64,000 nt of DNA from an uncultured Verrucomicrobiota bacterium (lineage in GTDB: Bacteria; Verrucomicrobiota; Kiritimatiellia; Kiritimatiellales; Pontiellaceae). The translations under genes were made by a program, and so were the position numbers. The stretch lies in the NCBI GenBank assembly GCA_964483355.1, contig CAZABK010000003.1:14584-78583 (forward strand), in the 5' to 3' direction. Shown here in pieces: positions 23,062 through 54,519 of the stretch. The notes under the pieces are model-generated. The model was not told the DNA's origin. It was given only the letters and a program-made list of their open reading frames with translations, and did no database searches. Within the stretch, counting starts at the first letter, position 1; each line of letters begins with the position of its first letter.

Positions 23062-24302
23062 ATGAAGATACGAAGTTATGGTGCGCTGGTGGCAGTCTGG
23101 TTGGTATCATCGGCAACCGGGCAAACTGCAATTCCCGGCACGACAGAAACCGCACCACTGCAAAGATCTTTGAATTGGAGGAATTATTCATTGAGCAACA
23201 GTACAGCTTCCTTCCCATTGCACCACCATCGGAAGAAATTTATCTCCACTCCAACAGTCAGGTTGTTCCGGTGGCGTTCGACAATTTTCCAAAGCGTTTC
23301 CAGAAAAGAATTATGGCGGAGTTTGATAAATCCACCGGAATCCCGCTTTACTCCATAACCATTGAAGAAGATCCGGTCAGTCGCCGAACCATTTTCAGGA
23401 ATGCGTTCGGCGTTGTTATTTTCGAGTTAGAGCCTGAAGAAAACTACAATCCTTTTGCGTGGCCGGAATGGAAATTCAGTCTCGCCGAAGGCGAAGCCCT
23501 TGATCCTTTTACCCAATGGCTTTACGACCCGGCGCATATCGCCGTTTCGTTTACACTGATTGATTCGATTTATTACGAAGCCTATCTTGCGGAAAAAGAA
23601 GCCCTGCGTCTGGCAGCTGCATCAATGCAGCCCATGATGATGACCATGTCGGCACCGCTGATAAAACCCATTGCATCCATGACCACCGGAAGCAACGGGT
23701 TGGTTACACTCAACATTTCATTGCTGGACACTTACGGCGGTTATGTTGAAATTTTTGACCGTGACTGGCTCCAGTATTGGGATGATTGGGAACTCGCCAA
23801 GAGCTGGCTTCCAACCTATGGAAACCAGCAGGTTTCATGGCAGGACAATTCATCGTCAGGAAAGAACCATAGATTCTACTACATCGGCGACGCGACCGAT
23901 GACCCCGAAGGTGATGGCTTCTCAACATTACGCGAGGAACTGCCCACTGGAACAGACCCTGCGGTTTTCAATATGATCGATGAAGATAATGATGGAATGC
24001 ATGACTGGTGGGAAGCCAAGCTTTTCGGAGGAACCAACCAAGTCGGTTCAGGCGATTTTGATGGTGACGGTTTGCTCAACAATGAAGAAATAGTCTATGT
24101 ATCATCAGGTTCCGGCTCCCCGTCAGTCACCATGAGCAGCGACCCGTCCCTGTTTGATACAGACGCAGACGGGATGGATGATGGGTTTGAAGAATCTTAC
24201 TACTGGCTGGATCCTATGGATTCTTCCGATGCAGGAAGCGACCGGGACGGGGACAATCTCACGAATAAATATCTCACCATCCGTGGCACGCTCTACCGTT
24301 AG
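23062..24302 (+). pseudogene. Frameshifted, truncated exported protein with DxDxDG calcium-binding (TSP3-like) repeats
   Basis: Signal peptide (MKIRSYGALVAVWLVSSATG) is in frame 1 and the body in frame 3 (shift near 23130-23165); repeats DEDNDG, DFDGDG, DTDADG, DRDGDN; the ORF stops abruptly within a repeat. Confidence 0.65.
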
Positions 24303-24348
24303 GTTTTGGCAGTCTGAAGTAAATGGTTCCGGAAACTGGATTTTGAAA

Positions 24349-24376
24349 GGTAGGGAGCGACCGCCGGGCGCGCCGC
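24349..24376 (+). repeat. GTAG-type REP-like element
   Basis: GGTAGGGAGCGACCGCCGGGCGCGCC resembles the reverse complement of the copies at 26414 and 50201. Confidence 0.5.
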
Positions 24377-24539
24377 ACTCCGAGTTGTCCCGCCATCTAA
24401 TCGCGCCGCAGCTTTAACGAAGGAGGAAACCCGGCGACGGCGGATCCGTCATTTCCAACGAGTCAGGTCGAAGCCTCGGCCAAGACTGATGCTTGGAAAA
24501 CCTGCCCCCATCAGCGAAGGTTCATCTGTTATCCCTTGT

Positions 24540-26309
24540 TTATTTGTTAAAACCCTTGTGGTTCATGAATTCCCAAATGCGATCCATCCAGGTGTAGCTG
24601 CCCGTGCCCGGAGCGGCCTTTCTCTGAAAGCAGTGCCCGCGTTTGACAAGCGTATGGAGATCGGACTGGATTCCCATCCGGCGGAGCTGCTCCCAGCATT
24701 TTACCGAATTCATCGCCGCCCAGCCGTCCGCATCGCCGTGAATGAACAGCATCGGACAGCTCGCAAGATCAAACGAAAATTCAGGAACGAGCCGCGCATC
24801 GTCTTCGTTGCCGCCCGTCTTATTGTGGAAGTCCGAGCCGTCCGTGAGCGCGTACGCCGGATAGATGGCGATCGCCCACTGTGCGTTGCAGGGAATGTTG
24901 TCCAGGTCGTCGATCGGCCAATAGGAACGATGCTTCGAGCTGGTTGCGCCCATGAGCGTCAGGTGGCCGCCGGCCGAGGAACCCATGATGCCGATGCGGT
25001 CAGGATCGAGTCCCTTCGCCGCAGCCTCGCTGCGGACAATTCGAACGGCGCGCTGCAGATCCTGCCACGCCGTCGTGTGCTTCGCCAGCCCGCCCAGCGG
25101 ACGCGGCGTGCGGTATTTCATTGTCACGACCGCCATGCCCTTTTCGTTCAGGTAACGCCGTGTCGGCGCGACTTCAAATCCGTCCGGAGCGTTGCCTTTG
25201 TAAGCGCCGCCCGAGTAGATGATCTGGATTGCCTTTGTCTTGAGTTCTTTCGGCATGTGCCACTCGAGATACGGCAGGCACTGGTTCGTCTGCACATCCG
25301 GCATTTTGCCTTCCGGCCAAACCGGTTCTTTGCTGTACTCGCCTCGCGCATCGTCGCTTGCATAGCGGGACATCAGATCGACTTCTTCACCGAGGCGCCC
25401 GTCAAAATTCATCTGGCGGAAGAATTCAGCGATACGATCCATCCAATGATCATAGGCGGTGCCGTCTTCGCCTTTGTTCGGATCACCCATAAAACCGTGA
25501 GGACGATCCGCGAAGAGATGGAGCTCGGCCGGAATTTTCATTCGACGGAGCTGGCGGTAGATCTGCGTGGATCCATTCGGCGAATATCTGTCCGCTCCGC
25601 CGTGGAAGAGAGCCATCGGACACGTCTTCTCGTCGAACCTGAACACGTCCGAGAGCTGAACATCAATCGCATCGCCATCGCGGGTATTGGGCCCGGTGAG
25701 TCCGTCTGTGAGCGCATAGGCCGTGTAGACCGGCACCGCCCAGTTGACGTGACACGGAAGCCGGTCAAGGTCATCGACCGGCTCGTACGCCGGCGTGAGC
25801 GAACTCGTCGCAAGCAGGACCGTCAAATGCGATCCTGCGGAAAAGCCGAGCACGCCGATCTTCTCCGGATCAAAGCCGCGCTTTTCAGCATCGTTGCGTA
25901 CGAGGCGGACGGCGCGCTGCCCGTCCTCCCACGCGCTCTGATAAATGGGCAGCCCCTGAGGACGCGGCGTACGGTAGGTAAGGCTCACGCAGACGAACCC
26001 AAGCTCGGAAAACTTTTTTGCAACACGGTCAATCCACACCCCGTCGCAGCAACTCTGATAACCGCCACCGGAAATGAGCAGCATGCATCCGCCGTTTTTC
26101 TCCGCAGGCGGCTCGTACCAATCGAGATGCGGCATCCTATTATCCGCAGCAACAAATCCCGGAGCTTTCACCTCCTGAGTGGTCGCCGCGATCTGTTGGG
26201 GCTGAAAATCAGGGATCTTTCCTTCCGGCCACAGCGCGATCCGCTCCCCGGCAATAGCCAGACCGGCGACCAGCCACCCGCACCCGAACATAACTATTTT
26301 TTTCGTCAT
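24540..26309 (-). CDS. Exported tandem double alpha/beta-hydrolase (carbohydrate esterase-like)
   Basis: Two homologous domains, each with ISGGGY/YSGGAY, YRTPRP, GxSAG (GFSAG, GSSAG), HG.AD and a His motif; signal peptide from ATG 26309. Confidence 0.85.
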   Translation of the reverse strand: MTKKIVMFGCGWLVAGLAIAGERIALWPEGKIPDFQPQQIAATTQEVKAPGFVAADNRMPHLDWYEPPAEKNGGCMLLISGGGYQSCCDGVWIDRVAKKFSELGFVCVSLTYRTPRPQGLPIYQSAWEDGQRAVRLVRNDAEKRGFDPEKIGVLGFSAGSHLTVLLATSSLTPAYEPVDDLDRLPCHVNWAVPVYTAYALTDGLTGPNTRDGDAIDVQLSDVFRFDEKTCPMALFHGGADRYSPNGSTQIYRQLRRMKIPAELHLFADRPHGFMGDPNKGEDGTAYDHWMDRIAEFFRQMNFDGRLGEEVDLMSRYASDDARGEYSKEPVWPEGKMPDVQTNQCLPYLEWHMPKELKTKAIQIIYSGGAYKGNAPDGFEVAPTRRYLNEKGMAVVTMKYRTPRPLGGLAKHTTAWQDLQRAVRIVRSEAAAKGLDPDRIGIMGSSAGGHLTLMGATSSKHRSYWPIDDLDNIPCNAQWAIAIYPAYALTDGSDFHNKTGGNEDDARLVPEFSFDLASCPMLFIHGDADGWAAMNSVKCWEQLRRMGIQSDLHTLVKRGHCFQRKAAPGTGSYTWMDRIWEFMNHKGFNK

Positions 26310-26413
26310 ATCGCTTCCTCTATTTTCCTCATCGCAATAAAGCAACGATCATAAAACAAACCTGTTCCCCGCAAAAAACAGCTAAAGCCCTTAGGCGCCC
26401 TTCGTGTGTGCTT

Positions 26414-26487
26414 AACGCGCCCGGAGGTCGCGTTCCACCTCACTCAACTCCGAGTTCCAAGGGTTGGAAGGAGGCTGAGCCTCCACC
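26414..26487 (-). repeat. REP-like cluster
   Basis: GCCCGGAGGTCGCGTTCCACC (26419-26439) is identical to 50207-50227; a second hairpin GGAGGCTGAGCCTCCACC and a TTCCAAgggTTGGAA palindrome lie alongside. Confidence 0.65.
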
Positions 26488-26513
26488 CGATTATTTTTCC
26501 AAACATTGGAAAT

Positions 26514-27416
26514 TTATTGCGCGGCAGCGACACGGCCGGTGAAGAAACCGACGACGCGGTCGAGAATTTCATCGACCGAAGGAGACTGCTCTTTATCACG
26601 CCGGAAGCCGTGACCGGCTTTTTGCACAATCTGCAGGGTACAGTCCGTTCCCAGCTGATCGGCTTTCCGCTTGAAGCGCAGGGAATGCTCCATGTTCACG
26701 ATGCCGTCGCTGTCGCCGTGAAAAATCAGTACCGGCGGACAGTCGGCAGACAGGTTGCAAAACGGGCTGATTTCCCGGTATGCCTCCGGCTCATCTTTGA
26801 AGTGGCGGCCCATCCGGTCGCTCAGCGGGCGCAGCCCGCCGTTTTTTTCGATCGAAATGGTTTCATAGTTTTCCATATCGCACGGAGGATAGAAGGCCAC
26901 GGCTCCGCGCAGGTGCACATCGGCTGCGGCCAGCTCCGGGGATTCACTCAGCTCCGCATTGGCGGTTGCGGTGGCTGCCATCAGCGTCAAGTGTCCGCCG
27001 GCAGACTGGCCCCAGACAAATATGTTTTCGGGGTCGGCACCCAGCTCTGCGGCATGGGCGGCCACATAACGAACGGCATCGAGCGCATCAACGGTGGACT
27101 CGCGCATGTAGATGTTTTTCTGTTCATTCACTTTGCGGTATTCAACCGACACGCCTAGAAAACCTTTTTCAGCCAGTCGGTTAAACAGCTCGGCGGTCAG
27201 GCCTCCAATATTCTTTGAACCAACGCGCCAGCCGCCGCCGTGAATAAAAATGTGCACGGGACAGGTTTGGCTGTTCGTCTGCGGATAATAGAGATCCAGC
27301 ACGCACGCCGGATCGTCGTTTCGGTACGCAATATTTTTCCGAACCTTGGAAAACGGCGCGGCCTGAAGACTGCCGGCCACCGCAAGAAGAGCTGTAATAA
27401 GGATGAGTGTTTTCAT
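26514..27416 (-). CDS. Exported alpha/beta-hydrolase (BD-FAE/HSL-like esterase)
   Basis: IHGGGW, GQSAGG, HGDSD and AGHGF motifs; signal peptide MKTLILITALLAVAGSLQA. Confidence 0.88.
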   Translation of the reverse strand: MKTLILITALLAVAGSLQAAPFSKVRKNIAYRNDDPACVLDLYYPQTNSQTCPVHIFIHGGGWRVGSKNIGGLTAELFNRLAEKGFLGVSVEYRKVNEQKNIYMRESTVDALDAVRYVAAHAAELGADPENIFVWGQSAGGHLTLMAATATANAELSESPELAAADVHLRGAVAFYPPCDMENYETISIEKNGGLRPLSDRMGRHFKDEPEAYREISPFCNLSADCPPVLIFHGDSDGIVNMEHSLRFKRKADQLGTDCTLQIVQKAGHGFRRDKEQSPSVDEILDRVVGFFTGRVAAAQ

Positions 27417-27466
27417 AGTTGTAATTTTTTGAAGTAAACAACCGTCAGTCGGCAGAGTATACCTTG

Positions 27467-28270
27467 TTATTTTTCCAACCTTTGGAACTTTTGGGTCAAC
27501 CGACGGACTTCGTTGATGACCAGCGGACAAGCCGGTTCGATAATCCCATGGCCGTAGCCGTCGAGTTCCATGATGCGAGTGTCCGGGTGCCCCGCTACAC
27601 GCATCATGCGCATCATGTAGGCGTTTTCCTCGTAGCGGCCGAGCATTTCCATTTCGCGGTCGCCGGTAATCAGCAGCAGCGGCGGTGCGTCGGGCCGCAC
27701 ATGAAAGAGCGGCGCCATCTCATCCACAATCGGCTGCGTACGGCTGATCCCGCGTTCGGCACGGACTGTCAGGTGAGTAATGGTATGCCCGCTGAGCGGA
27801 ATCAGCCCGGCGAGGCAATCGGCATCGATTCCGAATGCAGCCAGATAGGATTTATCCAGCCCCACCATACTGGCGAGGTAGCCGCCGGCCGAGTGCCCGG
27901 AGAGAAAAACCAGGTTTGAATTGCCGCCGTACTGCTCAATATGCTTGAGCACCCAGGCGACTGCGGCGGCGGCATCCTCGACATAGCCGGGGCTTTGCAC
28001 CTTCGGGTTCAGTCGATAATTCACGCTGACCACCGCGACCTTACGGTTCAGCAAACCGGGCGGAAAATGCTTGTTGCCATTCCTCAGTCCGCCGCCGTGG
28101 AACCACACGACCGTCGGGAAGTCCGTTACGCCGTCGGGAAGCCAGATATCGAGTTTGCAGCGCTCCACGGCATACGGATCGTCCGACTCGCGATACGACA
28201 GGTTGGAATGGATTGTCTGCGCGGACAACCCACCAGCACACAACAGGATCAGTAAAATAATTCGTTTCAT
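27467..28270 (-). CDS. Exported alpha/beta-hydrolase (carboxylesterase)
   Basis: FHGGGL, GHSAGG, TGDRE and YGHG motifs; signal peptide. Confidence 0.88.
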   Translation of the reverse strand: MKRIILLILLCAGGLSAQTIHSNLSYRESDDPYAVERCKLDIWLPDGVTDFPTVVWFHGGGLRNGNKHFPPGLLNRKVAVVSVNYRLNPKVQSPGYVEDAAAAVAWVLKHIEQYGGNSNLVFLSGHSAGGYLASMVGLDKSYLAAFGIDADCLAGLIPLSGHTITHLTVRAERGISRTQPIVDEMAPLFHVRPDAPPLLLITGDREMEMLGRYEENAYMMRMMRVAGHPDTRIMELDGYGHGIIEPACPLVINEVRRLTQKFQRLEK

Positions 28271-28286
28271 TACAAGTACTCCGATT

Positions 28287-31200
28287 TTACGGAATCGTCA
28301 CCGTGACGGTTTCGGAAGCCGTTCCGACTCCGGCGAGGTTGGCTCCGGCAACACAGTAATAATACGTTTGCCCCGACACGACATCTAAATCCGTATACGA
28401 AGAAACGGCGACCTCTCCGGTCAACACTTCGAACGGTCCCGATGCGGACAACGCGCGCTTTACCTGATAGGTACAGGCATCCGCATCCGCAGTCCAGTCC
28501 AGCAGCACACTGCCGGAGCTGCCGTCTGCCGTCAGGCCTGACACCGCGTCAGGAACAGAACAATCGCCGTACCAGAACGGCCCGTGATCGGAAAAGCTCC
28601 AGAGAACGCCGTCCAGGCTGACTCCCAGCCCCCACACGCGCCCGTTTCCAAACACATCGTCGGTCATCAATGAAGTCCAGGTTTCGCCGGCATCCGAGCT
28701 TTTAAACACCCACGATCCGGTTCCGCTGATCAGACCCAGTTCCCCGGCATAAATCACATTGTCATCCTGAGGATCTATACAAACCTGCAGGAGATCGAGC
28801 CGGCCCAGGGAATCCGCAACAAACCCATCCGATTCGTCCTTGAAGTCCAGCGTGTCGTTCGGGATGTCATAGATATACAGTCCGCCGTCATGTCCGATGT
28901 ACAGTTTGTCGCCGGCGGCGTTCAGAACCACCGATCCGATAAAGCTTGAAGCAAAATATCCGTTGTACCCGAGGTCTTTAAGCACCGTGTAATTCAGGCC
29001 GTTCTCCGTCGAGCGATAAATCCGATCCCCGTCAAACAGATAGACGGTATCTTCGTCATCCGGGTCCACGGCAACAATCTGCTCGCAGTTGGTGGCCCCG
29101 ATGTCGGTCCAGGTTGTTCCGCCATCCAGGCTGAATACATCGCCGGCATAGATATAATCGGAATTCTGCTCGGGAATAATGACCGCAGCCTTCTGTTTTC
29201 CCTGTGTTCCATCGACAATCTCAAAGTTTAACCCGCCATCCGTACTCTTCTGGAGCACCCCGTCCAATCGCGGGGAATGATAGCCGATTCCCGCCCAGAC
29301 CGTGGACGTGCCGGAGTTACCGGAGTCATTCACAATCACAGCGCCCAGCGCATCGACCTTTCCATAGTTTACCGCCGACGCGCGCTCAAAGGACTGCCCG
29401 CCGTCAAAGGTCACCATGACTCCATAATCCACCGAATTAATCAGGAAATGATTCGGATCCATCTCATCGACAATCAGCCTGAGCCCGCGGAACCCGCCAT
29501 AGTTCTCATTGCTCCAGACCCAGTTTTCACAGGCATTCGTCGTCATAAACATGGAGCCGTAATTAAATGCCTTCATCCAGGTGTCCTGTTTGACCGGATG
29601 CGGTGCGAAGGCCAGCGGCGGCGTCAGGTTGTGGCTGTTCGAGGTGAAGGCAAAGCGGTCTTCTGCATCCCGGTTGTTCTTCAGCTCCCAGGTGTCGCCG
29701 CCATCGGTACTGAAATACGGACAACGCCCCTCCCACGACCAGGCAGCTCCGAGCATGACATGGTCCGGCTGAAGAGGATGAACCTTTATGTCATAGAAAT
29801 AGGCACCGGCATTGATATTCGAAAGAACTGGCAGGCCGGATGCCGACGTGATGTCGACCCAGCTATTGGTTCCGGTCTTCCGATAAACCTGCTGGTCATC
29901 CACGATGGCAAACACCCGGCCGGTTGTTGAAGAATCCGCACACAGCGCGGTGATATAGAGGTCTCCATCAAGACCGTCATTCAACGTGCTGAATGTCACC
30001 CCGCCGTCTTCACTTTTAAAAAGCCCCTGCTCCGTTCCTACATACAGCAGGCTGTTGTTTTCCGGATGAACCTGAACGGCCGTCACCATGGAATTGCTGA
30101 TAGTTGACGTTCCGACCTGAGCAAAAGAATCCCCGCCATCCATACTGGCAAACAGACCCTCTGATGAACCCACGAAGATCATTTCGCACAGTCCGGAACT
30201 GCTGCTGTATGAATCCGGCACAACCGCCACGAGGTTCATGGTCAGGTCCCTGGGCATTCCCTGCAAATTAAAATGTTGGGAAAACGCCCAGGTTTCGCCG
30301 TTGTCTTCACTGATATAAAGGCCCTTGGTCGAAATATCGATCGCCCCGTTTGCATCAGCCAGGGCATACAGCCGATCCTCGGCAACCGGGTCGACCGCCA
30401 GTCCGCGGATAAAATACCCTTCAATTCCATCCATCTTTGACGTCCAGGATGCACCGCCATCATCGCTGCGATAGACCCCGGCAGTATCGATTCCCATAAA
30501 CACGGTCCGGTAATTATTTTTCGGAGAAAAGACAATCACCCGCGGCACCTGTGACCCGTCACCGCCAATCTCTGCGCGATCCCGTTCCCCGGAGTTGCGC
30601 ACCATCATGTTATGCCAGGAAGACACCGGTTCCCCCAGACAGGCAATATTGTCCACAAAAAGCTGCCCGACTTTGGTCAGATAATCCGAATCAATCAGCG
30701 ACAGCCGAAAGGTCACACTGGCTCCGGCAACCAGAACGGTCTCGGGAAGAGACGTCAGGGAAACATCGTAATCCGCATATCCCGCAATGGTCGAGTTCGG
30801 CGAAAACGTCCCGGTTGCAAAGTTGTTCGTCAGATCCAGGTCACCGCCCACAACACTCAGGCTGTATCCGTCGCTGCCTCCGGAATACTGCCGCCAGGCA
30901 TCAAAGCAGAACCAGGTCAGCTCATAACTGTCTGAGGTGTTGTTCTCAACAGTTATATCAATGTGCGATGTGTTGTTTGTATTTTTGGTCCAAAAGGCCC
31001 CATCGTCTCCGGCAGTCCCGGTTGTTGCACCGGTGCCCAACGATCCGAATGTTCCATCCTGAGATCCATACCCAGGTGTCGTAAGCTTCCAGTCATCGCC
31101 GAGAGTCCCGTGATCGCTCCAGACCTGATTCCCCTCAAAACCATCCGCCTCAACCGTTGCATTTTTGTTGCTGTAGCTTGTAGTAAGTGCACATTTATCG

Positions 31201-31295: not shown

Positions 31296-31362
31296 GGTTT
31301 TGTATTAAGACCAGAATCTTATTCAACCGGGCACTCACTCCTCATGCCCGACTTCCTGCAAC

Positions 31363-33801: not shown

Positions 33802-33837
33802 AGCAAAACTCCTGTATCAGTTTTTATCCTGCACCAA

Positions 33838-35133: not shown

Positions 35134-35339
35134 TCCTACTCCTATATCCATATGCCCCGCACGGTCTCGCCGCGACACAACTCTTGATTCTTTTCCAGGC
35201 ACCGATCTGCCCATTTAAAGCCGGCGACGTCAGACATTCCGCCCGAACCGGTCAGCTCCCAAAGCCCGCAGTCTTCACCGCGGTCATAAGGCATTCTTCA
35301 CACCTTCTTTGGGAACTGCTTCAAATCCGTCCTATCCGC

Positions 35340-36902: not shown

Positions 36903-36931
36903 GCCTGTTCTCCTTTGTCGATTAACACTCA

Positions 36932-37950: not shown

Positions 37951-37983
37951 GTCTGTCCTCCTTATCAGGTTTCTACCCATAAC

Positions 37984-39000: not shown

Positions 39001-39013
39001 GACTCGCCCCTTT

Positions 39014-42387: not shown

Positions 42388-42757
42388 TTACACACGTTCG
42401 TTTTCAGTTTTCCGGACAGCCGCACTGTCCTCCTCGTCACAAACCTATCGGGAAAAATAGGTTCTTCGTAAATTACATGGAATCAATTCTATGCATTTCT
42501 GACCGGATCACAGGATATTCAGGATCTCTTTTATAAAGTATTCCATCCGGTTCATCAGCATGCTCTCTTCCCTTCCATGCCCGCCTCGATTGTCGTTTCA
42601 GATCATCAACCGTTTTTCTGCTGAGCAACAAATGGATGAACTGGATTCACATCCCGACCATCCTGTTATCCGGTCAAAAACTATTCTATTTCCCTACACC
42701 TGCCACAACATATTACGAGGAGCCAATATTTAATATAAACAATGCCCCGCGCGGAAT

Positions 42758-44212: not shown

Positions 44213-44227
44213 TCGAATTTCCTGAAT

Positions 44228-45202: not shown

Positions 45203-45238
45203 AATAACTCCTATAATTAAATAATGATCGCGCCCTGT

Positions 45239-46702
45239 TTAACTTCCGTTCTCAGGCGACTGGTTTTCAGATTCCTTTTTTGCATGCCGCTCATCCAGCA
45301 GCGCACGGGTTGCGGCGGCCCGCTCTTCACTAATCGGATAAAAGTGAACCAGAACAATTCCGATCAGCAGAGCCGCGAACGGAATAGCGGAATAGCAGAC
45401 CCGAAGGATAAACAGCGCATCTTCGGACTGGTTTGCGCCCAGTTCCGCCCGGAACCCGCTCGCCTGCAGGAGCACCCCGACAATCAGCAAACCAACCGAG
45501 ATGCCGATTTTTAAAAAGTTGGTGTATATCGCGTTATACATCCCCTCGCGCCGGACGTTGGTGGCAACCTCATCCTCATCGCAAATGTCCGCCACCATGG
45601 ATGGCGTCAGAATCCACAAGCCACCCAGGCCGGGCGCCATAATTGCCAAACTGATGAACTGCATGTACGGCCAGCGGGGGTCAAACGTGAAAAACTTCGT
45701 TCCCGCGCCCACTGCGGCAAAGGCCAGCGTCAGCATCAGCGTATGCTTTTTCCCCAGACGCCTAGAAACCCAGTTCACCAACGGAGCGGCAACCAGACCG
45801 CCGAACACCCCGTAAACGGTTCCGCTGAGACCCATCAGCCAGGACGCCCCCTTCTCGTCACCGCCGAACACATAAAAAATATTAATGTACGAGCCCATCT
45901 GGTTCACCATGAACACACCCAGACAGGTCAGCACAATCACCGCCAGCAGCAGAGAAAAGCTGCGGTTTTTCAGAACAATCTTCAAACTGTGCCAGAAGGG
46001 TTCTTTCTTCTGCCCGGACACCGCTTTCGCCAGGCGTTCCTTGCAGCACAGCGCCGGGATGGACGTGCTGATAATCATAATCACGGCAACTCCCAGCGAA
46101 ATCGTCTTCATTCCGTCCAGCGTATTTTCAAAGCAATCCATTTGCGTAAGGCGATACATCCAGTGCATCGACAGCCCCAGTGACGACGCAAAAAACGCCC
46201 TAAAGGACATCACCGTGGTTCGCTCGTTGTAATCAGGCGTCAACTCGCTGCCCAGGGCATAAAAAGGAACAGCAAACACTGTATAGGCCGTATAAAACAG
46301 AAGGGAACCAACCAGCAGCCAGACAAACTGCGCATTGTGCGTCCAGCCGACCGGAACCCGCCACAGCAGAACAAATAAAAACGCGCCGATCAGCCCCCCC
46401 GCAAGAATGTACGGACGACGACGGCCGAACCGCGTCCTTGTATTATCCGAAATGGATCCCATGGTCGGATCCGTAAACGCATCCCAGATTCTGGAACAAA
46501 AGATAATCAGACTGATCAAAACGGGATTAATCCCCAGAAAAATATTAAACACCTGGCTCGCCATACTGTTAATGGAGTTCTGCATCAGGTTGTCAGCGGC
46601 TCCGCCAACCCCGAACGCGGTTTTCTCCCAAACCGACAACACCTTTTTTTCGCTATCTCTGCTTTTCTTCATAACAAACTTTCCGACTCCCGCACCTTTC
46701 AA
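45239..46702 (-). CDS. GPH-family MFS sugar transporter
   Basis: RIWDAFTDP.MG.ISDNTRTRFGRRRPYIL, ALGSELTPDYNERT and RREGMY motifs; ~12 TM segments. Confidence 0.92.
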   Translation of the reverse strand: MKGAGVGKFVMKKSRDSEKKVLSVWEKTAFGVGGAADNLMQNSINSMASQVFNIFLGINPVLISLIIFCSRIWDAFTDPTMGSISDNTRTRFGRRRPYILAGGLIGAFLFVLLWRVPVGWTHNAQFVWLLVGSLLFYTAYTVFAVPFYALGSELTPDYNERTTVMSFRAFFASSLGLSMHWMYRLTQMDCFENTLDGMKTISLGVAVIMIISTSIPALCCKERLAKAVSGQKKEPFWHSLKIVLKNRSFSLLLAVIVLTCLGVFMVNQMGSYINIFYVFGGDEKGASWLMGLSGTVYGVFGGLVAAPLVNWVSRRLGKKHTLMLTLAFAAVGAGTKFFTFDPRWPYMQFISLAIMAPGLGGLWILTPSMVADICDEDEVATNVRREGMYNAIYTNFLKIGISVGLLIVGVLLQASGFRAELGANQSEDALFILRVCYSAIPFAALLIGIVLVHFYPISEERAAATRALLDERHAKKESENQSPENGS

Positions 46703-46730
46703 TGACTCCGCCCTCTCGGCCGCACGCCTT

Positions 46731-46781
46731 TAGTTTCGTAACAAGATGCGACACATCACCGGATCTGTCAAATCTATTTAC
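46731..46781 (-). promoter_or_regulatory. Operator copy + promoter
   Basis: TAGTTTCGTAACAA at 46731-46744 with minus-strand TTGACA upstream. Confidence 0.6.
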
Positions 46782-46799
46782 AAACTTCTCCCGGACGAA

Positions 46800-49007
46800 T
46801 CAGCCGCACGTCGAAAAACGATACGTCCCGCCGCCAACCGAATTGAAACTTCCGTCCGGCAGGATCACAGTGGCAGAGATTCCGGCCGGAACCTCGCCCT
46901 CAAAAACAACCCGCGCTCCATCACGCTTCCAACCACTGGAAATTTTTCCGAAAGGACTCCGATGCTCGACACGCACCCAGTCCAAACCGGCAACCGAATG
47001 GGGTTTTATGGTTACATGCCGAAATCCCGGATTGTTTTCGTCAGGAACGATCCCGCCGAGATACTGGAACATCCAGGCATCGATATCGCCGAACATAACG
47101 TGGTTCTGAGACCCCGAACCGTCCCAGTTTTCCCACAAGGTGGTCGCGTCCTGGTTCAGCCAGTTTACCCAGCCGGGAAAAGCCGGCTGTGTGATTAACT
47201 CATACGCCAGTTCCACATATCCATTCTCCGCGAGTGCCCGTGGAATATATTTAGCACCCAGAATGCCGAAATCCGAACGCACTCCACTCGCACGAACGGC
47301 ATCAACAAGCCGCTCGACAACTTCACCCTTTTCTTCCGCACCAACAAGCCCTTGATACACGGCACATGCCATTGCTGTCGGCTCTCCTTTTGCGTACAGC
47401 CCGTCCCCTTTATAAAAAGCATGATTGAATGCGCTCTTAATCTTTTCTGCACGCGCTGCATATACGGCCTGATCCTCAGCCCGCCCGACGATTCCGGCCA
47501 TCTTCGAAAGCAGCAGCGTGTCTGCGTAATAATATCCAGTATCCGTCAGCGCCCGATCGACCATACGACTCTTATCCGGATGACACCAATCCCCAAGGCC
47601 GAACGAAACAAGTTGCTCCGTGGCCCGCGAAGCACAGTAATCCAGATACAGCTTCATTGCATCGTAATGTCGCCGAATGCTGGAATCATCACCCGTATAC
47701 ACATAGACATACCAGGGAATCAAAAACAGCGCACTGTCCCAGGCCGGACCGCTCCCCCAGTTGTAACCCCAGCCCGCCGTCGGAATAATTCCCGGCAACT
47801 GGCCGCTGGGCCGCTGACAGTCCGCGAGTGAGTTCATCCAATCCGCATAACTCGAACCGGCCGCAAAATTAAACAGTCCGGCTTCCGCCGCCAAATGCGC
47901 ATCCGCAGTCCAGCCGTTCTTTTCGCGATGCGGACAATCCGACGGAATTCCGACAAAATTGCCGACATACGAACGCACCGTGTAGTCATGCAGTCGATTC
48001 AACGTCTCGTTCGAAGAAGAAAAACGACCCACTCTCTCGAAAGCCGTATACACCACGCGCCCTTCCAGCTTCAGCAGCTCAACATCGCCCGCCACGCTCA
48101 CATAACGGAATCCGTGAAAGGTAAACCGCGGCTCCCAAACTTCCTCCCCATCTCCTTTCAAGATGTAATGGTCCCGCTGGAACTGCTCATCCATCACATA
48201 GCTGGAAATATGCTCCCGATCCACCTCCCGCGAAGAATCCAGCAGCTCGCCGTATTTTAGAACCGCCTCCGATCCAGCAGCGCCTCGAACCGTAATGCGC
48301 GCCCAGCCGCTTATGTTTTCCCCAAGGTCATACACCCGCACTCCGGAGTCACACACCCATGAATCCACCGGCGACAGCGTCTGCATCACCTTACAGGGCG
48401 GCATCGTCTGGCGGACCAGTTCACCGCCGGGTGGCGCCACCTCTTGCGCAGCAATCCATTGAGATTCGTCATACCCGGCTTCAGACCATTGGCCCAGCTC
48501 CAACCGGGCGTCATATTTTTCGCCGTTACGAAGTCCATCAAAAACAATCGGACCGGATGTCACCTGCCACGTTGTGTCGCTGCGCAAAACAACGTCGCCA
48601 TCAACCTCCATCTGCAGCAGAAGCTTCGGATAATCCCGCCAGGCTGCCTTATCAAAGTGCCATACCTCCGCGGAATGGCAGTTGTACCACCCGTTGCCGA
48701 GAATCACCCCAATCACGTTTTCCCCAGCAACCAGGTACTCCGTCACATCGTGCTCCACAACATGAACACGCCGGTCATACTGCGTCACCACCGGATCCAG
48801 AACCTGAACCCCGACTTTTCGCCCATTCACATACAACTCATAAAAGCCAAGCCCGCACAGCTTCACAAAAACCCGCCGCCCCGGCTCAGGTGCATTAAAC
48901 ACCTTTCGAAAATACGGTGCCGGCAGCACCTCTCGCCGCCAATCCACCATAACCGCCCCCGGCGGCCGGCATCCAATCCACTTCGCGTCCCAATCCCGCT
49001 GACTCAC
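46800..49007 (-). CDS. GH78 alpha-L-rhamnosidase-like protein
   Basis: PSDCPHREKNGWTADA, YDLGENISGW, PRFTFHGFRYV, TLWENWD and SQNHVMFG; GTG at 49007 with GGAGG RBS; no signal peptide. Confidence 0.9.
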   Translation of the reverse strand: MSQRDWDAKWIGCRPPGAVMVDWRREVLPAPYFRKVFNAPEPGRRVFVKLCGLGFYELYVNGRKVGVQVLDPVVTQYDRRVHVVEHDVTEYLVAGENVIGVILGNGWYNCHSAEVWHFDKAAWRDYPKLLLQMEVDGDVVLRSDTTWQVTSGPIVFDGLRNGEKYDARLELGQWSEAGYDESQWIAAQEVAPPGGELVRQTMPPCKVMQTLSPVDSWVCDSGVRVYDLGENISGWARITVRGAAGSEAVLKYGELLDSSREVDREHISSYVMDEQFQRDHYILKGDGEEVWEPRFTFHGFRYVSVAGDVELLKLEGRVVYTAFERVGRFSSSNETLNRLHDYTVRSYVGNFVGIPSDCPHREKNGWTADAHLAAEAGLFNFAAGSSYADWMNSLADCQRPSGQLPGIIPTAGWGYNWGSGPAWDSALFLIPWYVYVYTGDDSSIRRHYDAMKLYLDYCASRATEQLVSFGLGDWCHPDKSRMVDRALTDTGYYYADTLLLSKMAGIVGRAEDQAVYAARAEKIKSAFNHAFYKGDGLYAKGEPTAMACAVYQGLVGAEEKGEVVERLVDAVRASGVRSDFGILGAKYIPRALAENGYVELAYELITQPAFPGWVNWLNQDATTLWENWDGSGSQNHVMFGDIDAWMFQYLGGIVPDENNPGFRHVTIKPHSVAGLDWVRVEHRSPFGKISSGWKRDGARVVFEGEVPAGISATVILPDGSFNSVGGGTYRFSTCG

Positions 49008-49028
49008 AGCTGCACCTCCCAAATTAGA

Positions 49029-49098
49029 GTTACGTAACAATAAGATGATCGAATAGATTGTCAACAAAACCAGCGTCTGTTATTTTTCGTTACATAAT
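49029..49098. promoter_or_regulatory. Divergent promoter region with operator(s)
   Basis: GTTACGTAAC at 49029-49038, weaker GTTACATAAT at 49089-49098, minus-strand TTGACA between them; lies between the GH78 and LacI genes. Confidence 0.7.
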
Positions 49099-49140
49099 TA
49101 CAGGTTTTATAACTCCATCGTACCCGCTCCAAAACATGCT

Positions 49141-50172
49141 ATGAAACAGATCAATGTCCGACAAATCGCCGCCGAAACCGGCGTATCCATCGCCACCATT
49201 TCACGTGTCATCAACGGGAAAAGCGGCGTCGGCGAAGAAAAACGGAAACTGGTGCATGCCGCCCTCCTGAAACACAACTACGTGCTGAACTCCCATCTTG
49301 CCAAAGAGCGCAAAATTGCGCTTCTGTGCGGCACATCCCACGGAGAATACGTGGGAGAACTCTTCAATGGAATTCATGAATACGCGCGCAAAAACGCCAT
49401 CAACACAGCCCTGATCTTTAATAATGAATCCCTGAAAATGACCGCCTTCGAACAGCTGCGCGACCAGCAGTGCTCCGGCGTCATCGTCATCGCCCCCAAC
49501 CGCTTCCGCAATGAATTCGACACACTGGCCGGCTCCGAGCTGCCGGTCATCCTGATCGACGAAACCGTTCGCAAGGACGGACTGGGCTTCATCAATCACG
49601 ACGCGGCAAAAGGCTCCAAAGCCGCAGCAGAACATCTGTTGGAACTGGGACACAAAAACATCGGATATATCCGCTACGGAATTCGCACAGCCAATCACAC
49701 CAACCGCTTCAAGGCCTACAAAACCGTACTCAAAAAAGCCGGCATGGACATTCCGGATCACTGGCACGTTGAAACCGATGCAGACAAACCATCTCTGGAA
49801 GCCGCATATCAAGCCGCATCACAGCTCATGGAACAGGCCCCGGAACTCACCGCCGTCATGACCACCAACGACTCGCTGGCCATCGGCGCAATGAAAGCCA
49901 TCATCGACTCCGGAAAAAGAGTCCCAGAAGACATTTCCATCGTCGGCTACGACAACTACGACTTTTCGGAATACACCAACCCGGCACTGACGACCGTTCA
50001 TCATCCGATCCGCGAAATCGGCTTCCAGGCCGCCGAAGCCATCAACACCTACTTTCAGGATCCCAAACACACAGCCCTGCCGCAAAAAAGCCTCCCGACC
50101 CAACTGATCATCCGCGACTCAACCTGCCCGCCCCGGAAACAAAAACCGGCCACGCGACGAAAAGGTTACTGA
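49141..50172 (+). CDS. LacI-family transcriptional regulator
   Basis: IAAETGVSIATISRVING HTH; NDSLAIG..KA, DISIVGYD and LTTV..P motifs. Confidence 0.95.
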   Translation: MKQINVRQIAAETGVSIATISRVINGKSGVGEEKRKLVHAALLKHNYVLNSHLAKERKIALLCGTSHGEYVGELFNGIHEYARKNAINTALIFNNESLKMTAFEQLRDQQCSGVIVIAPNRFRNEFDTLAGSELPVILIDETVRKDGLGFINHDAAKGSKAAAEHLLELGHKNIGYIRYGIRTANHTNRFKAYKTVLKKAGMDIPDHWHVETDADKPSLEAAYQAASQLMEQAPELTAVMTTNDSLAIGAMKAIIDSGKRVPEDISIVGYDNYDFSEYTNPALTTVHHPIREIGFQAAEAINTYFQDPKHTALPQKSLPTQLIIRDSTCPPRKQKPATRRKGY

Positions 50173-50200
50173 CCCTATTTCAGGCGATCACGGTGCGCAC

Positions 50201-50227
50201 GGACCTGCCCGGAGGTCGCGTTCCACC
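50201..50227 (-). repeat. REP-like element
   Basis: 21 bp identical to 26419-26439; lies between convergent genes. Confidence 0.65.
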
Positions 50228-50251
50228 CAATGCGTTGCTCGCGCAGCTCTA

Positions 50252-51829
50252 TTACTTCGTTAACTCAATCGCATCCAGAATCAGAGCGAGCGCTTCGCGC
50301 CCGATTTTAGCGACAGGACGGCGGTAGCCTTCCGGCAGCGCGTTGATGTGTTGCTGGAGCATTTCGCCGTTCTGCGGGTCGTCCTGATAGATCAGCCCGA
50401 CATCGGGATCATCGAGCCCGAAGTCCGGCTGCGGATATTTTTTCCAACCACTTGTCGCGCCGGAGCCGGGCGAAGGCGGATTGGAATCCACCGCGTCGGT
50501 CGCGCCCTCTTTTTCCAGGGTTTGGAACAATCGGGTACGCATGCTTTCCAAGGTTTGGAAAAAATCTGGATCGACGGTGACGTCGCGGCCGTCCATTTCC
50601 ATGGCCGGGCCGCTGATATCGAACAGCCACTCTTTGCGGTCGGCAGCGCTGTAGACATATTTAAAATCGCGCGTTGCAAGCATGTAGAGACCGAGATCTT
50701 TCTGCTGGAACTGACTGATGACACTGCGTGTCTTTTCTTTGCCGGCGGCGATTTCCACGAGGTTCGTTCCATACGATTCAGCATCAACACCTGCGGCAGA
50801 CAGAAGCGTCGGCCAAATGTCGAGCAGCGAAACCGGCGTGTCGCACTGCCCATTGGACGCGAAGTTTTTCGGCCAGCGGGCGAGCATTGGAACGCGGACG
50901 GAGGGGTCGAGCATGGTGCGCTTGCCGACGGAACCGTAGTCGCCGAGCAGCTCGCCGTGGTCGGAAGTGAGAATGATGAGTGTGTTGTCGAGTTCGCCCG
51001 ATTCTTCCAATGTTTGGAAAACGCGGCCGATGTTGTAATCGACGAACGAGACGCAGGCCATGTAGGCGGCGCGCAGGGTGCGCATCAGGTTGCCGTCGCT
51101 TCCGTTGTCGCGCCACTTGTAGCGGTTCTGGATTCGATTCCAGATGCAGAGCAGACCGTCGCTGTTTTCCGGCACAAACGGATAGCCGCTCTCTTCGGGG
51201 CGGTAGAGTTTGCTCCACGGTGTCGGCGACTCAAACGGAGGGTGCGGCTTGACCCAGCTCGACCAGAGAAAGAACGGGCGCGAAGTATCGCGGCGCTTCA
51301 GAAAGTCGATGGAACGGTCGGCCACCCAAGTAGATTGATGGTGTTCGGGCGGAAGCTGCGACGGCTGCGGAATATAATAGTATTCGCTGCGCAGGCCGCC
51401 GTCTTCGAGCACATGGCCGAATCCGTGTTCCTTCAGATAAGAATAATAGTCGTTGCCGTCGTGCTTCACCTCTTCGGCGACATCGCGGCTTTCGTAGCCC
51501 CACATGCGCAAGTGGTCGGGCGTAAAGTGCATCTTGCCGGTGCCGTGGGTCTGATAGCCCGCATCGCGCAGGTGCTCCATCAAGCTCGGCAAATCCTGCG
51601 GCATGGCGACGTTGTCGGTGCAGCCGGTCACATGCGCCGGCTGGCCGGTGACCATGCAGCAGCGTCCGGAAATGCAGACCGGCGACGGCGTGTAGGCGCG
51701 GGTGAAGGCGGTGCCTTCGGCGGCCAGCCGGTCCATAGCCGGGGTTTTGATGGTGTCGTTGCCCAGCGCGGCGATCGTGTCGAACCGCTGCTGATCGGTA
51801 AATAAAAGTAAGATGTTGGGCTGCTTCAT
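50252..51829 (-). CDS. Sulfatase with CxSxR variant signature
   Basis: PNILLLFTDQ, SPVCISGRCCMVTG, GKMH, KPHPPF and SDHGELLG. Confidence 0.9.
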   Translation of the reverse strand: MKQPNILLLFTDQQRFDTIAALGNDTIKTPAMDRLAAEGTAFTRAYTPSPVCISGRCCMVTGQPAHVTGCTDNVAMPQDLPSLMEHLRDAGYQTHGTGKMHFTPDHLRMWGYESRDVAEEVKHDGNDYYSYLKEHGFGHVLEDGGLRSEYYYIPQPSQLPPEHHQSTWVADRSIDFLKRRDTSRPFFLWSSWVKPHPPFESPTPWSKLYRPEESGYPFVPENSDGLLCIWNRIQNRYKWRDNGSDGNLMRTLRAAYMACVSFVDYNIGRVFQTLEESGELDNTLIILTSDHGELLGDYGSVGKRTMLDPSVRVPMLARWPKNFASNGQCDTPVSLLDIWPTLLSAAGVDAESYGTNLVEIAAGKEKTRSVISQFQQKDLGLYMLATRDFKYVYSAADRKEWLFDISGPAMEMDGRDVTVDPDFFQTLESMRTRLFQTLEKEGATDAVDSNPPSPGSGATSGWKKYPQPDFGLDDPDVGLIYQDDPQNGEMLQQHINALPEGYRRPVAKIGREALALILDAIELTK

Positions 51830-51866
51830 AGGATATCGTTCTCTTCTTTTTTACGACCGAATCGGC

Positions 51867-53054
51867 CTACGGCTCTCCCAGGCCGAAAATGCGTTCGGCT
51901 TCGAGCTGAGTATCCTCAAGTTCTCTCGTATGCAGGGTATAGTTCACCCCCACTTCAAGAGAGTCCCCGACGTCCAACTCGGTCAGCGGACCAAGCAGCT
52001 CCAGCTCGATATAATCGGATGAACCGGACGTAAAGATTTCCAGACTGCAGTCCGAGTCGGGATACGACCGGCCGGACAGGCGCGGCGTGCTCATTTCCAG
52101 ACAGACCTCGTCTCCAACCCACAGCATGCGCTCGCCGTCCGAACCGACCTTCCGATTCTCCGGATCGCGGGAGAATGAGACCAGCCCGTTGGTAACGGAC
52201 AGGTCAGACGGCGGCGTCTCCTTCAACAGGGTGTATCCAGAGGAAAACACGGAATTGGATACAACCGGAAAAAACAGGCGCTCCGGGTCCTGCAGCTGCG
52301 TAATAGTCCAGGCACCTATTGTGCAGGCCGAACCGGAAATCTTTTTATAGACCGTGGTCACCCGCATGCGTGTTTCTCCGGGGAAAAGACGAATATGACG
52401 CTCTACCTTAATGCCGTATTCCGCATCCACCGGCGATGTCAGCACCACTTCGCCATTTGCCACACTCATCGTGAACGACTCACCGTCAAATCCGCTCGGC
52501 GGGGGCCACCCCCACTCGGACTGCGGCGCGGGCCACACCTTGTCGCCGCCGAAATTCTGCCAGCCGCCCGACGCTTCCACGCCATCCAGCGAGCGGTCCG
52601 CCCAAAATACACCCTCGGAGCCTGTCATACCGAACTGCATAATCCGCCCGATCTCAGGTACGACAACTGCGTAAGCCGGGCCATTGCTGATGCAGACGGC
52701 ATTGGACCAGCCGCGATAAGTCAGGTCTTCGGAATGATTGGCCGGGTCAATCCGCACCCGATAATAAGCCGCATCACCAGGATCAAACGAATAATCGTCA
52801 AGCACAGTATTCGTGTCCGAGGCATAGCATGTTGTCAGCGACTGCCAGTCAGGATCATCCAGTTGTAAACTCCGCTCCACGGTCAGTACGGAACCGGTCT
52901 GGGAAGAAACCCCGACCGACAACCGATTACTGCTCACATCCAGATCCGTAACCGTCGGTGCCGGCAGGTCTGCCGAAGCGGTTCCGACGACTGCCGGCAC
53001 AGCCAGCATCCATATCGCTCGTTGTCTGTTATTCATCTCAATCGTCCTGTTCAT
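51867..53054 (-). CDS. Exported protein with DUF4380-like (aldose epimerase-like fold) domain
   Basis: Signal peptide; ~80-aa N-terminal beta domain ending AAYYRVR; VPEIGRIMQF and NFGGDKVWPAPQSEWGWPP motifs. Start uncertain (53063, 53054 or 53036). Confidence 0.6.
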   Translation of the reverse strand: MNRTIEMNNRQRAIWMLAVPAVVGTASADLPAPTVTDLDVSSNRLSVGVSSQTGSVLTVERSLQLDDPDWQSLTTCYASDTNTVLDDYSFDPGDAAYYRVRIDPANHSEDLTYRGWSNAVCISNGPAYAVVVPEIGRIMQFGMTGSEGVFWADRSLDGVEASGGWQNFGGDKVWPAPQSEWGWPPPSGFDGESFTMSVANGEVVLTSPVDAEYGIKVERHIRLFPGETRMRVTTVYKKISGSACTIGAWTITQLQDPERLFFPVVSNSVFSSGYTLLKETPPSDLSVTNGLVSFSRDPENRKVGSDGERMLWVGDEVCLEMSTPRLSGRSYPDSDCSLEIFTSGSSDYIELELLGPLTELDVGDSLEVGVNYTLHTRELEDTQLEAERIFGLGEP

Positions 53055-53088
53055 GGTGTTCAATGATTCGATTTAAAAAATGCACCTG

Positions 53089-54519
53089 TCAGTCTGACAG
53101 CGGTGCGGACACATGCGCCATGGTCATTTCGTGCGCACGACCGGGAATCAGCTTGGCCCCGTCGGTGAATCCTTCGGGCCGCCCTTTCAGCTTTTCAATC
53201 AAACGCCGGCGCCACGGGTCGAGATCAGCCGAATCGGACAGGTCGTTCAGCTCGTTCGGATCGTCGTCCAGATTAAACAGCTGCTCGGAGCCGTCATCGG
53301 AATGCCAGATATACTTTTCGCGCCCGTCGGTCAGCATGTGCCACATGAGGCCGTCGTAGTCGCCGTGCTCCGCATGCACAAATCCGCGCTCGATGGAACC
53401 GCCTTTAAGCAGCGGCACCAGGCTGACGCCATCGACGGAATCCGGAATATCAACCCCGGCCAGCTCGAGGATCGTCGGCATCAGGTCTTCGAGGCTGACG
53501 GCCGTCGAACAGGCGGCCTCGCTGAGACAGCCAAACTTTTCCGGGACATACATCAGCAGCGGGATTCGCGCCGCCCCTTCATAGGGCCGCGACTTGCGGA
53601 ACATGTAGTGGTCGCCCAGCATTTCGCCGTGATCCGCGCAGAAAATGATAATGGTGTTTTCGGCCGTTTCCCGGTCGAGCCCGCACTGCGGTGCGAGCAA
53701 CCGGCAGATCTGCTCATCGATATGGTTGATCATGCCGTAGTAGCCTGCCTGGCAGGAGAGCAGATCCTCCCCTTCAAGGCAGGCGCGCGCGCAGTCCATC
53801 GGCAGGCCGACCCCGTCGTTTTCGGGCCGCTCGGCCCAGGTTCCAATGTTTGGAAGATGACTGCCCATGCGCAGATAGCGGTTCATATAAAATTCGGGCG
53901 GATAGAGCGGCGGGTGAGGCCCGGCAAAGCTGGCCACCAGAAAGAACGGACAGTCGGGGTCGCGCCGATCGAAAAAACGCAGGGCGGCATCAACCGTGCG
54001 GCAGCTCGGATGAAGCGTATCGTCGAGATTCCACGAACGGGCGGTGCGGCCGTTGGCATGCAGGCCGTGGCTCCAGCTCGGGTTGTATCCGTGGCCGGGA
54101 AGCTTTCCATCGTAGAGGTCATCGGGATGAACATCGCCGCAATGGGTCATTTCATCGAAGCCGAACCGTTTGCGGCGCGGATGCTGATGCATGTCGCGGC
54201 CGACAAGCTGGGTCTGATAGCCCGCCTTTTTGAGTTCACCCGGCAGCGTGGCCGCCGGGTACCACTCGCACTCCTCCACGTTGGACAGCATTCCGTGTGT
54301 TGCGGGAAACTGCCCGGCCATAAAACTGCGGCGCGCCGGAATGCACATGGGACACGGCGAATAGGCGTGCTCAAACCGCACACCGGCGGTCGCCAGCGCA
54401 TCGAGGTTGGGCGTTTTTACTTTGGGGTGCCCTTCCACGCCGAGCGCATCGCCGCGGAACTGGTCACACATGATCACTAAAAAATTGGGCCTGGTTTTCA
54501 TTTCAAATCTCTTTTTCAC
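53089..54519 (-). CDS. Sulfatase (Cys-type)
   Basis: PNFLVIMCDQ, CIPARRSFMAG, GPHPP, ADHGEMLG and LFNLDDDPNEL. Confidence 0.93.
   Translation of the reverse strand: MKKRFEMKTRPNFLVIMCDQFRGDALGVEGHPKVKTPNLDALATAGVRFEHAYSPCPMCIPARRSFMAGQFPATHGMLSNVEECEWYPAATLPGELKKAGYQTQLVGRDMHQHPRRKRFGFDEMTHCGDVHPDDLYDGKLPGHGYNPSWSHGLHANGRTARSWNLDDTLHPSCRTVDAALRFFDRRDPDCPFFLVASFAGPHPPLYPPEFYMNRYLRMGSHLPNIGTWAERPENDGVGLPMDCARACLEGEDLLSCQAGYYGMINHIDEQICRLLAPQCGLDRETAENTIIIFCADHGEMLGDHYMFRKSRPYEGAARIPLLMYVPEKFGCLSEAACSTAVSLEDLMPTILELAGVDIPDSVDGVSLVPLLKGGSIERGFVHAEHGDYDGLMWHMLTDGREKYIWHSDDGSEQLFNLDDDPNELNDLSDSADLDPWRRRLIEKLKGRPEGFTDGAKLIPGRAHEMTMAHVSAPLSD

Follow-up and report, generated by a model that had tools for sequence, protein, structure and literature searches.

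Why should one spaced palindrome, TTCCA-N5-TGGAA, recur within a short stretch of bacterial DNA, and mostly inside genes? The 64-kb stretch that raises this question, hereafter the window, is C3:14584-78583 of the 2.98-Mb, 129-contig assembly of an uncultured Kiritimatiellia bacterium (G000; other G numbers denote relatives or further genomes of the phylum, C numbers contigs of G000, and L numbers individual stretches of sequence). Nine perfect copies were found in the window, at exactly the positions listed by an initial annotation made from the letters alone, whereas dinucleotide-preserving shuffles gave an average of 0.08 and at most 1. Six of them (26455, 26497, 27473, 50546, 51005, and 53841) extend to TTCCAA-N3-TTGGAA, as that annotation had also reported; of its two near-copies, the one at 27337 has a single mismatch, whereas the one at 55381 is weak, with two. 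The results below show that the window copies are a local view of a class-wide, hyper-abundant, and helically phased palindrome.

All nine copies lie within a glycan-utilisation stretch, and no perfect copy was found in the flanking housekeeping blocks (positions 1-23808 and 53856-64000). The earlier remark that housekeeping blocks are free of perfect copies holds for these flanks, but it describes a property of the low-copy G000; in high-copy relatives, conserved housekeeping genes do contain the word. Most copies do lie in open reading frames (ORFs), the six at 23809, 46927, 50513, 50546, 51005, and 53841 being spread over three frames, and among them are the three FQTLE readings described in one sulfatase; the exceptions are the copies at 26455 and 26497, which are both intergenic. 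A plus-strand ORF (26406-27158) that would hold this pair was rejected: it partly overlaps a Pfam-supported esterase gene on the opposite strand and was dropped by the home-made hexamer gene caller used throughout G000, the identities of the window genes being taken from Pfam.

Across G000, 139 copies of TTCCA-N5-TGGAA were counted where about 6.4 were expected from half-site frequencies, so that the genome-wide count proposed as a check bears out the local one; this expectation and the window shuffles reject chance or base composition as the source. Counts per 20 kb were over-dispersed (mean 0.95, variance 2.54). The excess was specific to the 5-base spacer: spacers of 0-4 and 6-12 bases gave 2-10 copies each, and the control arrangements in general (other spacers, inverted arrangement, direct repeats) 2-15 each. 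When the flanks of the 137 fully flanked copies were aligned, only a T-rich left edge, an A-rich right edge, and a centre C or G emerged, and the centre base of the TTCCAA-N3-TTGGAA copies was S in 60 of 62 and W in 2. The word is therefore tTTCCAA-N-S-N-TTGGAAa, a perfect dyad of 15-19 bp with a strand-symmetric centre. A strict form, TTCCAANSNTTGGAA, was used for the phylum survey. The suggestion that the PflMI core CCA-N5-TGG might be the unit was not borne out: without its T...A flanks the core stands at control level, neither enriched nor depleted, and enrichment needs at least TCCA-N5-TGGA. A PflMI-type restriction core, a unit of a kind usually avoided or methylated, was rejected on this ground.

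The signal acts on DNA rather than on protein, as had been proposed. Of the G000 copies, 102 are genic, divided 43/28/31 among the frames, and 37 are intergenic (27% of the copies in 13% of the DNA). The codon-preserving controls that the initial annotation had called for fall far short of the 102 genic copies, with 21.7 ± 4.4 after a synonymous-codon shuffle within genes and 4.4 ± 2.3 after a codon-order shuffle. Codon choice and amino-acid sequence are thus both bent towards the word, and to describe it as tolerated inside genes understates the case. A protein motif was rejected by the use of three frames and by the same shuffles. The word is built partly from non-preferred (rare) codons, its copies are spread evenly along genes with no positional bias found in G000, and their density in the highest quintile of coding typicality is one seventh of that in the second-lowest, copies being concentrated in glycan-utilisation and other atypical-codon regions. 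An imported island of foreign composition was considered here; GC content and GC content at third codon positions differ slightly between site-rich and site-free neighbourhoods, which does not settle the question.

Comparison of orthologues showed how the copies arise. Between the high-copy genomes G002, G012, and G026 and G000 (67-91% amino-acid identity), nothing but substitutions separates the orthologues at the alignable sites in conserved genes (35 of 35), many of them synonymous and some changing residues; for example, LGIPVLGICY in G000 corresponds to LGLPILGICY in G002, with ATTCCGGTGCTCGGCATC changed to CTTCCAATCCTTGGAATC. The window sulfatase that carries three copies presents the converse situation, and it differs from its closest orthologue (G013, 71% identity) by amino-acid changes without any indel, the G013 residues being VLDELGD at the 51005 site, YAASLIT at 50546, and LLDTLEK at 50513. 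A homologue from another family (G024, 46% identical) has its own perfect copy, coding IFQTLEE, aligned with the 51005 site. This substitution-only origin reveals a directional force and rules out a miniature inverted-repeat transposable element (MITE). A single decayed MITE, the outcome that shared flanks would have indicated, was rejected because flanks differ among copies and copies arise by substitution.

It is accordingly scarcely credible, and largely refuted already, that the copies are remnants of a mobile repeat, whether a MITE or a repetitive extragenic palindrome (REP) spread by a Y1/RAYT transposase. Some copies do sit in composite repeated modules, and Y1_Tnp (PF01797) genes are somewhat commoner in high-copy genomes. 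Against this, the flanks of the 139 G000 copies are not shared, genic copies arise by substitution and not by indels, 73% of the G000 copies are in genes, and G053, with 1325 strict copies, has 0 Y1_Tnp matches, whereas G067, of the same class and with 0 copies, has 31. The G067 matches are mostly short and N-terminal, some in ORFs of about 340 aa, and look like an expanded family. REPs and bacterial interspersed mosaic elements (BIMEs) of enterobacteria are also palindromic units in regular clusters at gene ends, and they are bound by architectural proteins (IHF, gyrase). However, they are extragenic, longer, imperfect, and spread as units with RAYT, whereas the present word also enters coding sequence by point substitution.

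The composite modules deserve description in their own right. One consists of the word, the hairpin GSAGGCTGAGCCTSC, ACCC with a T-run, and the word again, and occurs at 26455-26511 of the window and at 13579-13636 of contig C33; it resembles a terminator in which the T-run continues into the palindrome. Its hairpin recurs in two families, in G029 (L021 11772 and 14810; L022 6429; L023 8538) and in G025 (L109 3135). GGCTSAGCC was considered as a second iterated palindrome and dropped, since it shows no enrichment alone and is merely part of this module. A gene for a 346-aa protein is flanked on either side by a word-bearing repeat of about 60 bp (C33 18558 and 20060), an arrangement that may represent an inserted cassette.

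The spacing between neighbouring copies provided a structural clue. A sample of 82 neighbour distances of up to 200 bp, from five genomes, clusters at 22, 31/32, 42, 53, 63, 74, 84, and 105 bp, with a Rayleigh peak at 10.4 bp (R = 0.66, p ~3e-16) and a phase near zero; a period of 3 gave no signal in these distances. Three turns (31-32 bp) is the commonest spacing, and the phasing extends to about 190 bp. In G000 alone there are 18 close pairs against 1.3 expected by random placement (R = 0.74 at 10.5 bp, p ~5e-5), and 44 pairs when one-mismatch sites are included (p ~2e-6); the two pairs in the window have spacings of 42 and 33 bp. A period of 10.4-10.5 bp is that of B-form DNA. Spacers between array members are not conserved in high-copy genomes. 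The centre base is also unbiased with respect to transcription (56 G to 60 C in copies that follow stops, 38 G to 37 C in those that precede starts), which disfavours a role at the RNA level.

These observations bear on the possibility that the word acts as an RNA hairpin (UUCCAA-NSN-UUGGAA) in 3' or 5' untranslated regions, stabilising or terminating transcripts. In high-copy genomes many intergenic copies begin 1-8 nt past a stop codon. On the viral contig IMGVR_UViG_3300035698_006241 (L097 286-800), a stop codon is followed by four copies (spaced 31, 31, and 42 bp) and then by a GC hairpin and T-run terminator, and in one scanned 20-kb stretch of G029 terminator-like sites were not above shuffles, all of which would suit such a role. 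It nevertheless seems very unlikely: the unbiased centre base aside, phasing by helical turns is characteristic of double-stranded DNA, the hairpin would have a short, AU-rich stem, at least two thirds of the G000 and G026 copies lie inside genes and evenly along them, and no Rfam family matched in the window.

The word is lineage-specific, as the initial annotation had supposed, only some lineages of the window's class being enriched. Among 30 relatives, genomes within one genus hold from 5 to 2261 copies (a range of about 400-fold), and those of a second family up to 951; the reversed-pattern control gave 0-7. When 251 genomes of the phylum were surveyed for the strict word, enrichment reached 1325 copies (G053) and was confined to the window's class, where it is patchy, several families lacking any copy. 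All of the approximately 170 surveyed genomes from other classes of the phylum had 0-4 strict copies. The favoured centre triplet differs between lineages in this survey. We also scanned one genome per species, in 185,579 species, for triple arrays (three copies 31-32 bp apart) and obtained at least 120 matches; the 80 listed are metagenome-assembled genomes (MAGs) labelled Kiritimatiellae/Kiritimatiellia, Verrucomicrobiota/Verrucomicrobia, Lentisphaerae, or Spartobacteria, or without a name, and those among the matches listed come from rumen, lakes, and sediments. Seven stretches from six viral contigs of IMG/VR carry arrays as well. A full-text literature search returned no paper linking Kiritimatiellia with this palindrome.

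The mismatch spectrum supports the directional force deduced from the orthologues and separates the high-copy genomes from G000. In the former, perfect sites show a greater excess than one-mismatch sites, and variants with two mismatches are scarcer than at other spacers. The pattern is reversed in G000, with excesses of 132 perfect, 198 one-mismatch, and 315 two-mismatch sites, so that the word looks weakly maintained or eroding there. This suggests that G000 represents a low-copy, patchy state in which maintenance is weak or waning.

Within genomes, the word is widespread and not attached to particular loci. In high-copy genomes the word is 3.5-17 times as dense between genes as within them, and the share of copies inside genes is 60-73% in G000, G002, and G026 and 24% in a sample of G029. 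On the closed 3.88-Mb chromosome of G026 (951 copies), 23 sampled 20-kb pieces hold 0-13 copies each; no empty domain was seen among them, and restriction to a macrodomain was therefore rejected. The largest arrays in several lineages flank unrelated genes, as do those of G000, and no common gene was found beside them (a HypD/AIR-synthase-like gene, a DAHP-synthase-family gene, a 3-keto-disaccharide hydrolase gene, and others without assignment); nothing suggestive was found among the genes adjoining the G000 arrays. The word can be compared with parS, matS, the Noc-binding sites (NBS), and the SlmA-binding sites (SBS), which are short palindromes, mostly genic, read by dimeric proteins and acting on the chromosome rather than on a gene. 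Those sites occur in 10-100 copies and are either limited to one macrodomain or kept out of it, whereas the present word reaches 2261 copies and occurs all along the G026 chromosome, and no extra ParB paralogue tracks it.

Two further palindromes were noticed beside these arrays and in G000. A 30-bp perfect palindrome, CTTATGCGCATATGCGCATATGCGCATAAG, directly precedes a three-copy array in G029 (L023 6025-6054). A second dyad, cTAGTA-N5-TACTAg/a, occurs seven times in G000 against 0.04 expected, in AT-rich and apparently intergenic DNA outside the window (C1 22650, C10 33293 and 49176, C30 28870, C41 15231, C44 6076, and C121 606), and looks like an ordinary operator family.

We consider, with a probability of roughly 60%, that the copies serve to dock a protein that is symmetric, binds double-stranded DNA cooperatively, and is architectural rather than gene-specific, and that substitution under directional pressure supplies the sites. 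Among the four functions that the initial annotation put forward (binding, uptake, a link to methylation, and recombination), binding alone gains support, from the 10.5-bp phasing and the strand symmetry; the others are without positive support. The word, its spacer specificity, substitution origin, helical phasing, strand symmetry, and lineage distribution are direct observations, from which we infer that a protein reads the word, that its binding is cooperative, and what the binding does.

One symmetric sequence-specific protein, dimeric or of higher order, would read tTTCCAA-N-S-N-TTGGAAa in double-stranded DNA through two half-sites of 5-6 bp centred 10 bp apart, with a G:C pair at the centre; at that distance the half-sites would lie in successive major grooves on one face of the helix. 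Proteins on adjacent sites would touch each other, and such contacts would favour whole-turn spacings (2, 3, 4, 5, or more turns). Where the reader is active, the word would build up through ordinary point substitutions and then be retained, being densest between genes, often a few bases past a stop codon, and costing rare codons and some amino-acid changes within them. Because the word is not tied to particular genes, an architectural role appears likelier than that of a regulon regulator, and might consist in nucleoid organisation, insulation of gene ends, a roadblock, or an effect on topology.

A precedent for this geometry exists: octamers of the Lrp type occupy 15-bp semi-palindromes at regular intervals, and the DNA winds around the octamer (PMC10201364). 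The Lrp/AsnC operator arrays of BarR and Ss-LrpB share with the present word a 15-bp 5-N5-5 dyad, several sites per array, and a spacing of about three turns, a geometry compatible with DNA that wraps along one face of an oligomer (PMC10201364). However, those arrays are few, local to a regulon, and A/T-rich at their centres, whereas here there are hundreds to thousands of sites, many of them genic, with a G:C centre, and the single AsnC-family gene of the genomes compared does not track the word.

Several results weigh against a binding protein of this kind. When the presence of gene families was set against copy number across 31-41 genomes of the class, no reader emerged: PF01037, PF02086, PF03772, PF02195, PF00145, PF00216, PF01555, and PF01797 showed no clean correlation with copy number. 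Of 31 genomes, 29 have a single AsnC/Lrp gene, among them those where the word occurs 5-7 times, and the helix-turn-helix that this gene encodes is near-identical in high- and low-copy genomes. Regulators of this family are usually autoregulated; no word was found within 300 bp upstream of AsnC/Lrp in 21 genomes, a search in which the ORF picker took the wrong frame at some loci. ParB and HU/IHF are universal, and the number of their genes shows no relation to that of the word. Not all close pairs are independent, since some duplicate a single composite module, and the gene calls are home-made. Orthologous intergenic arrays are only partly conserved, so that selection per site is weak: in congeners, the regions downstream of the orthologues of the first gene hold 3, 2, 1, and 0 copies, and those upstream of the other gene 3, 1, and then none, synteny being broken. 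Finally, thousands of near-perfect sites, two thirds of them genic in some genomes, far exceed any known operator family, and such numbers, together with 400-fold swings within a genus, also fit a self-propagating drive. A separate screen of small, basic, highly typical G000 proteins for candidate readers yielded nothing convincing.

Such a drive would make the palindrome a self-DNA word of the uptake-sequence or Chi kind, in which uptake, recombination, or nuclease machinery favours word-bearing DNA and the word spreads by molecular drive. The spectrum of high-copy genomes is drive-like, copy number varies 400-fold within a genus, viral contigs also carry arrays, the word of G000 lies mainly in accessory regions that are possibly imported, and ComEC was found in every reasonably complete genome of the class tested (40 of 41 genomes overall). 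We nevertheless regard this explanation as unlikely. ComEC is equally present in zero-copy genomes, so that the uptake function once suggested is not supported, and uptake gives no reason to expect phasing at 10.5 bp to about 190 bp; Chi and the uptake sequences known to date are asymmetric words read on one strand. The DNA-uptake sequences (DUS) of Neisseria and the uptake signal sequences (USS) of Pasteurellaceae do resemble the present word in being lineage-specific, in occurring about once per 1-4 kb in and between genes and often just downstream of them, and in being made by substitution with a spectrum of perfect and near-perfect sites suggestive of drive. However, they are 9-12-mers in one orientation without helical phasing, they are enriched in core genes, whereas here density drops with coding typicality, and the machinery behind them has been identified, whereas in the present case ComEC fails to separate high-copy from zero-copy genomes.

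Another explanation builds on the highly iterated palindrome HIP1 (GCGATCGC) of cyanobacteria: an orphan methyltransferase would mark the palindrome, and selection or a repair bias linked to the mark would keep it. The function of HIP1 is still debated after thirty years. The likeness to HIP1 raised by the initial annotation is confirmed as regards hyper-abundance inside and between genes and in all frames, and it extends to an abundance that differs greatly among related genomes, to the partial use of non-preferred codons, and to rarity in the most typical genes (PMC5861425). The two words differ in sequence and in phylum, the present one being a spaced dyad and HIP1 a contiguous 8-mer. They also differ in periodicity, which for HIP1 is 18-94 kb and not helical (PMC5861425), whereas the present word forms arrays phased at 10.5 bp. 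It is thus an analogue of HIP1 and not a member. A link to methylation was not supported at the family level, as Dam (PF02086), C5 (PF00145), and N4/N6 (PF01555) methylases are missing in several high-copy genomes and occur in zero-copy ones. The word, with its free spacer, is longer than usual methylase sites, and its CCA-N5-TGG core alone is not enriched; we therefore hold a mark of this kind to be improbable. In the course of this comparison, 41 PF00145 matches, many clustered on few contigs, were seen in the 3.4-Mb zero-copy genome G100 of the same class.

The features of the window are listed in Table 1. The copy at 27473 lies about 90 bp upstream of the called start of the next esterase gene. 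The ORF that holds the copy at 23809 encodes 428 aa, has no Pfam match and a low coding score, and stands at the edge of the glycan island of 22.9-55.1 kb.

Table 1. Copies of the palindrome in the window and the genes and hairpin around them. Positions are those of the window; gene identities are from Pfam.
Feature	Position	Strand	Location	Remarks
Perfect copy TTCCAACCTATGGAA	23809-23823		Inside ORF 23016-24302 (+)	Read LPTYG
Perfect copy TTCCAAGGGTTGGAA	26455-26469		Intergenic	First of a pair 42 bp apart (4 helical turns)
GC hairpin GGAGGCTGAGCCTCC	26470-26484		Between the two intergenic copies	Followed by ACCCGATTATTTTT, running into the 26497 copy
Perfect copy TTCCAAACATTGGAA	26497-26511		Intergenic	Ends 2 nt from the stop codon (26514-26516) of BD-FAE esterase gene 26514-27380 (-)
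One-mismatch copy TTCCGAACCTTGGAA	27337-27351		Inside esterase gene 26514-27380 (-)	
Perfect copy TTCCAACCTTTGGAA	27473-27487		Esterase gene 27467-28228 (-)	Covers the last codons (FQRLEK, stop)
Perfect copy TTCCAACCACTGGAA	46927-46941		Alpha-L-rhamnosidase gene 46800-49067 (-)	Read SSGWK; 127 nt before gene end
Perfect copy	50513-50527		Sulfatase gene 50252-51829 (-)	Read FQTLE; 33 bp from the 50546 copy
Perfect copy	50546-50560		Sulfatase gene 50252-51829 (-)	Read FQTLE
Perfect copy	51005-51019		Sulfatase gene 50252-51829 (-)	Read VFQTLEE
Perfect copy TTCCAATGTTTGGAA	53841-53855		Sulfatase gene 53089-54519 (-)	Read LPNIG
BD-FAE/alpha-beta esterase genes	24540-26291, 26514-27380, 27467-28228	-		
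Major facilitator superfamily (MFS) sugar transporter gene	45239-46702	-		
Alpha-L-rhamnosidase gene	46800-49067	-		
Sulfatase genes	50252-51829, 53089-54519	-		

For the Kiritimatiellia, these results tentatively point to a DNA-marking system of their own, in which a dedicated and abundant symmetric protein would read a 17-bp palindrome in phased arrays at gene ends; its pressure would rewrite codons and amino acids in conserved genes, and its repeated gain and loss would leave patchy, eroded-looking sets of the kind seen in G000. A density that reaches one copy per 2-4 kb in high-copy genomes and overrides codon choice and protein sequence implies a strong genome-wide force. Phasing and strand symmetry are a structural clue that HIP1 lacks and make a binding protein directly testable, and the 400-fold contrasts within single genera are a ready phylogenetic-profiling design for the responsible gene. 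G000 contributes a set of such within-genus contrasts, a low-copy, patchy state with an eroded-looking spectrum, and clear examples of amino-acid rewriting in accessory enzymes. The word biases the codon and amino-acid statistics of these glycan-degrading bacteria and can mimic protein motifs, such as FQTLE in sulfatases, and it could serve as a lineage marker for MAG binning and for the assignment of phages to hosts.

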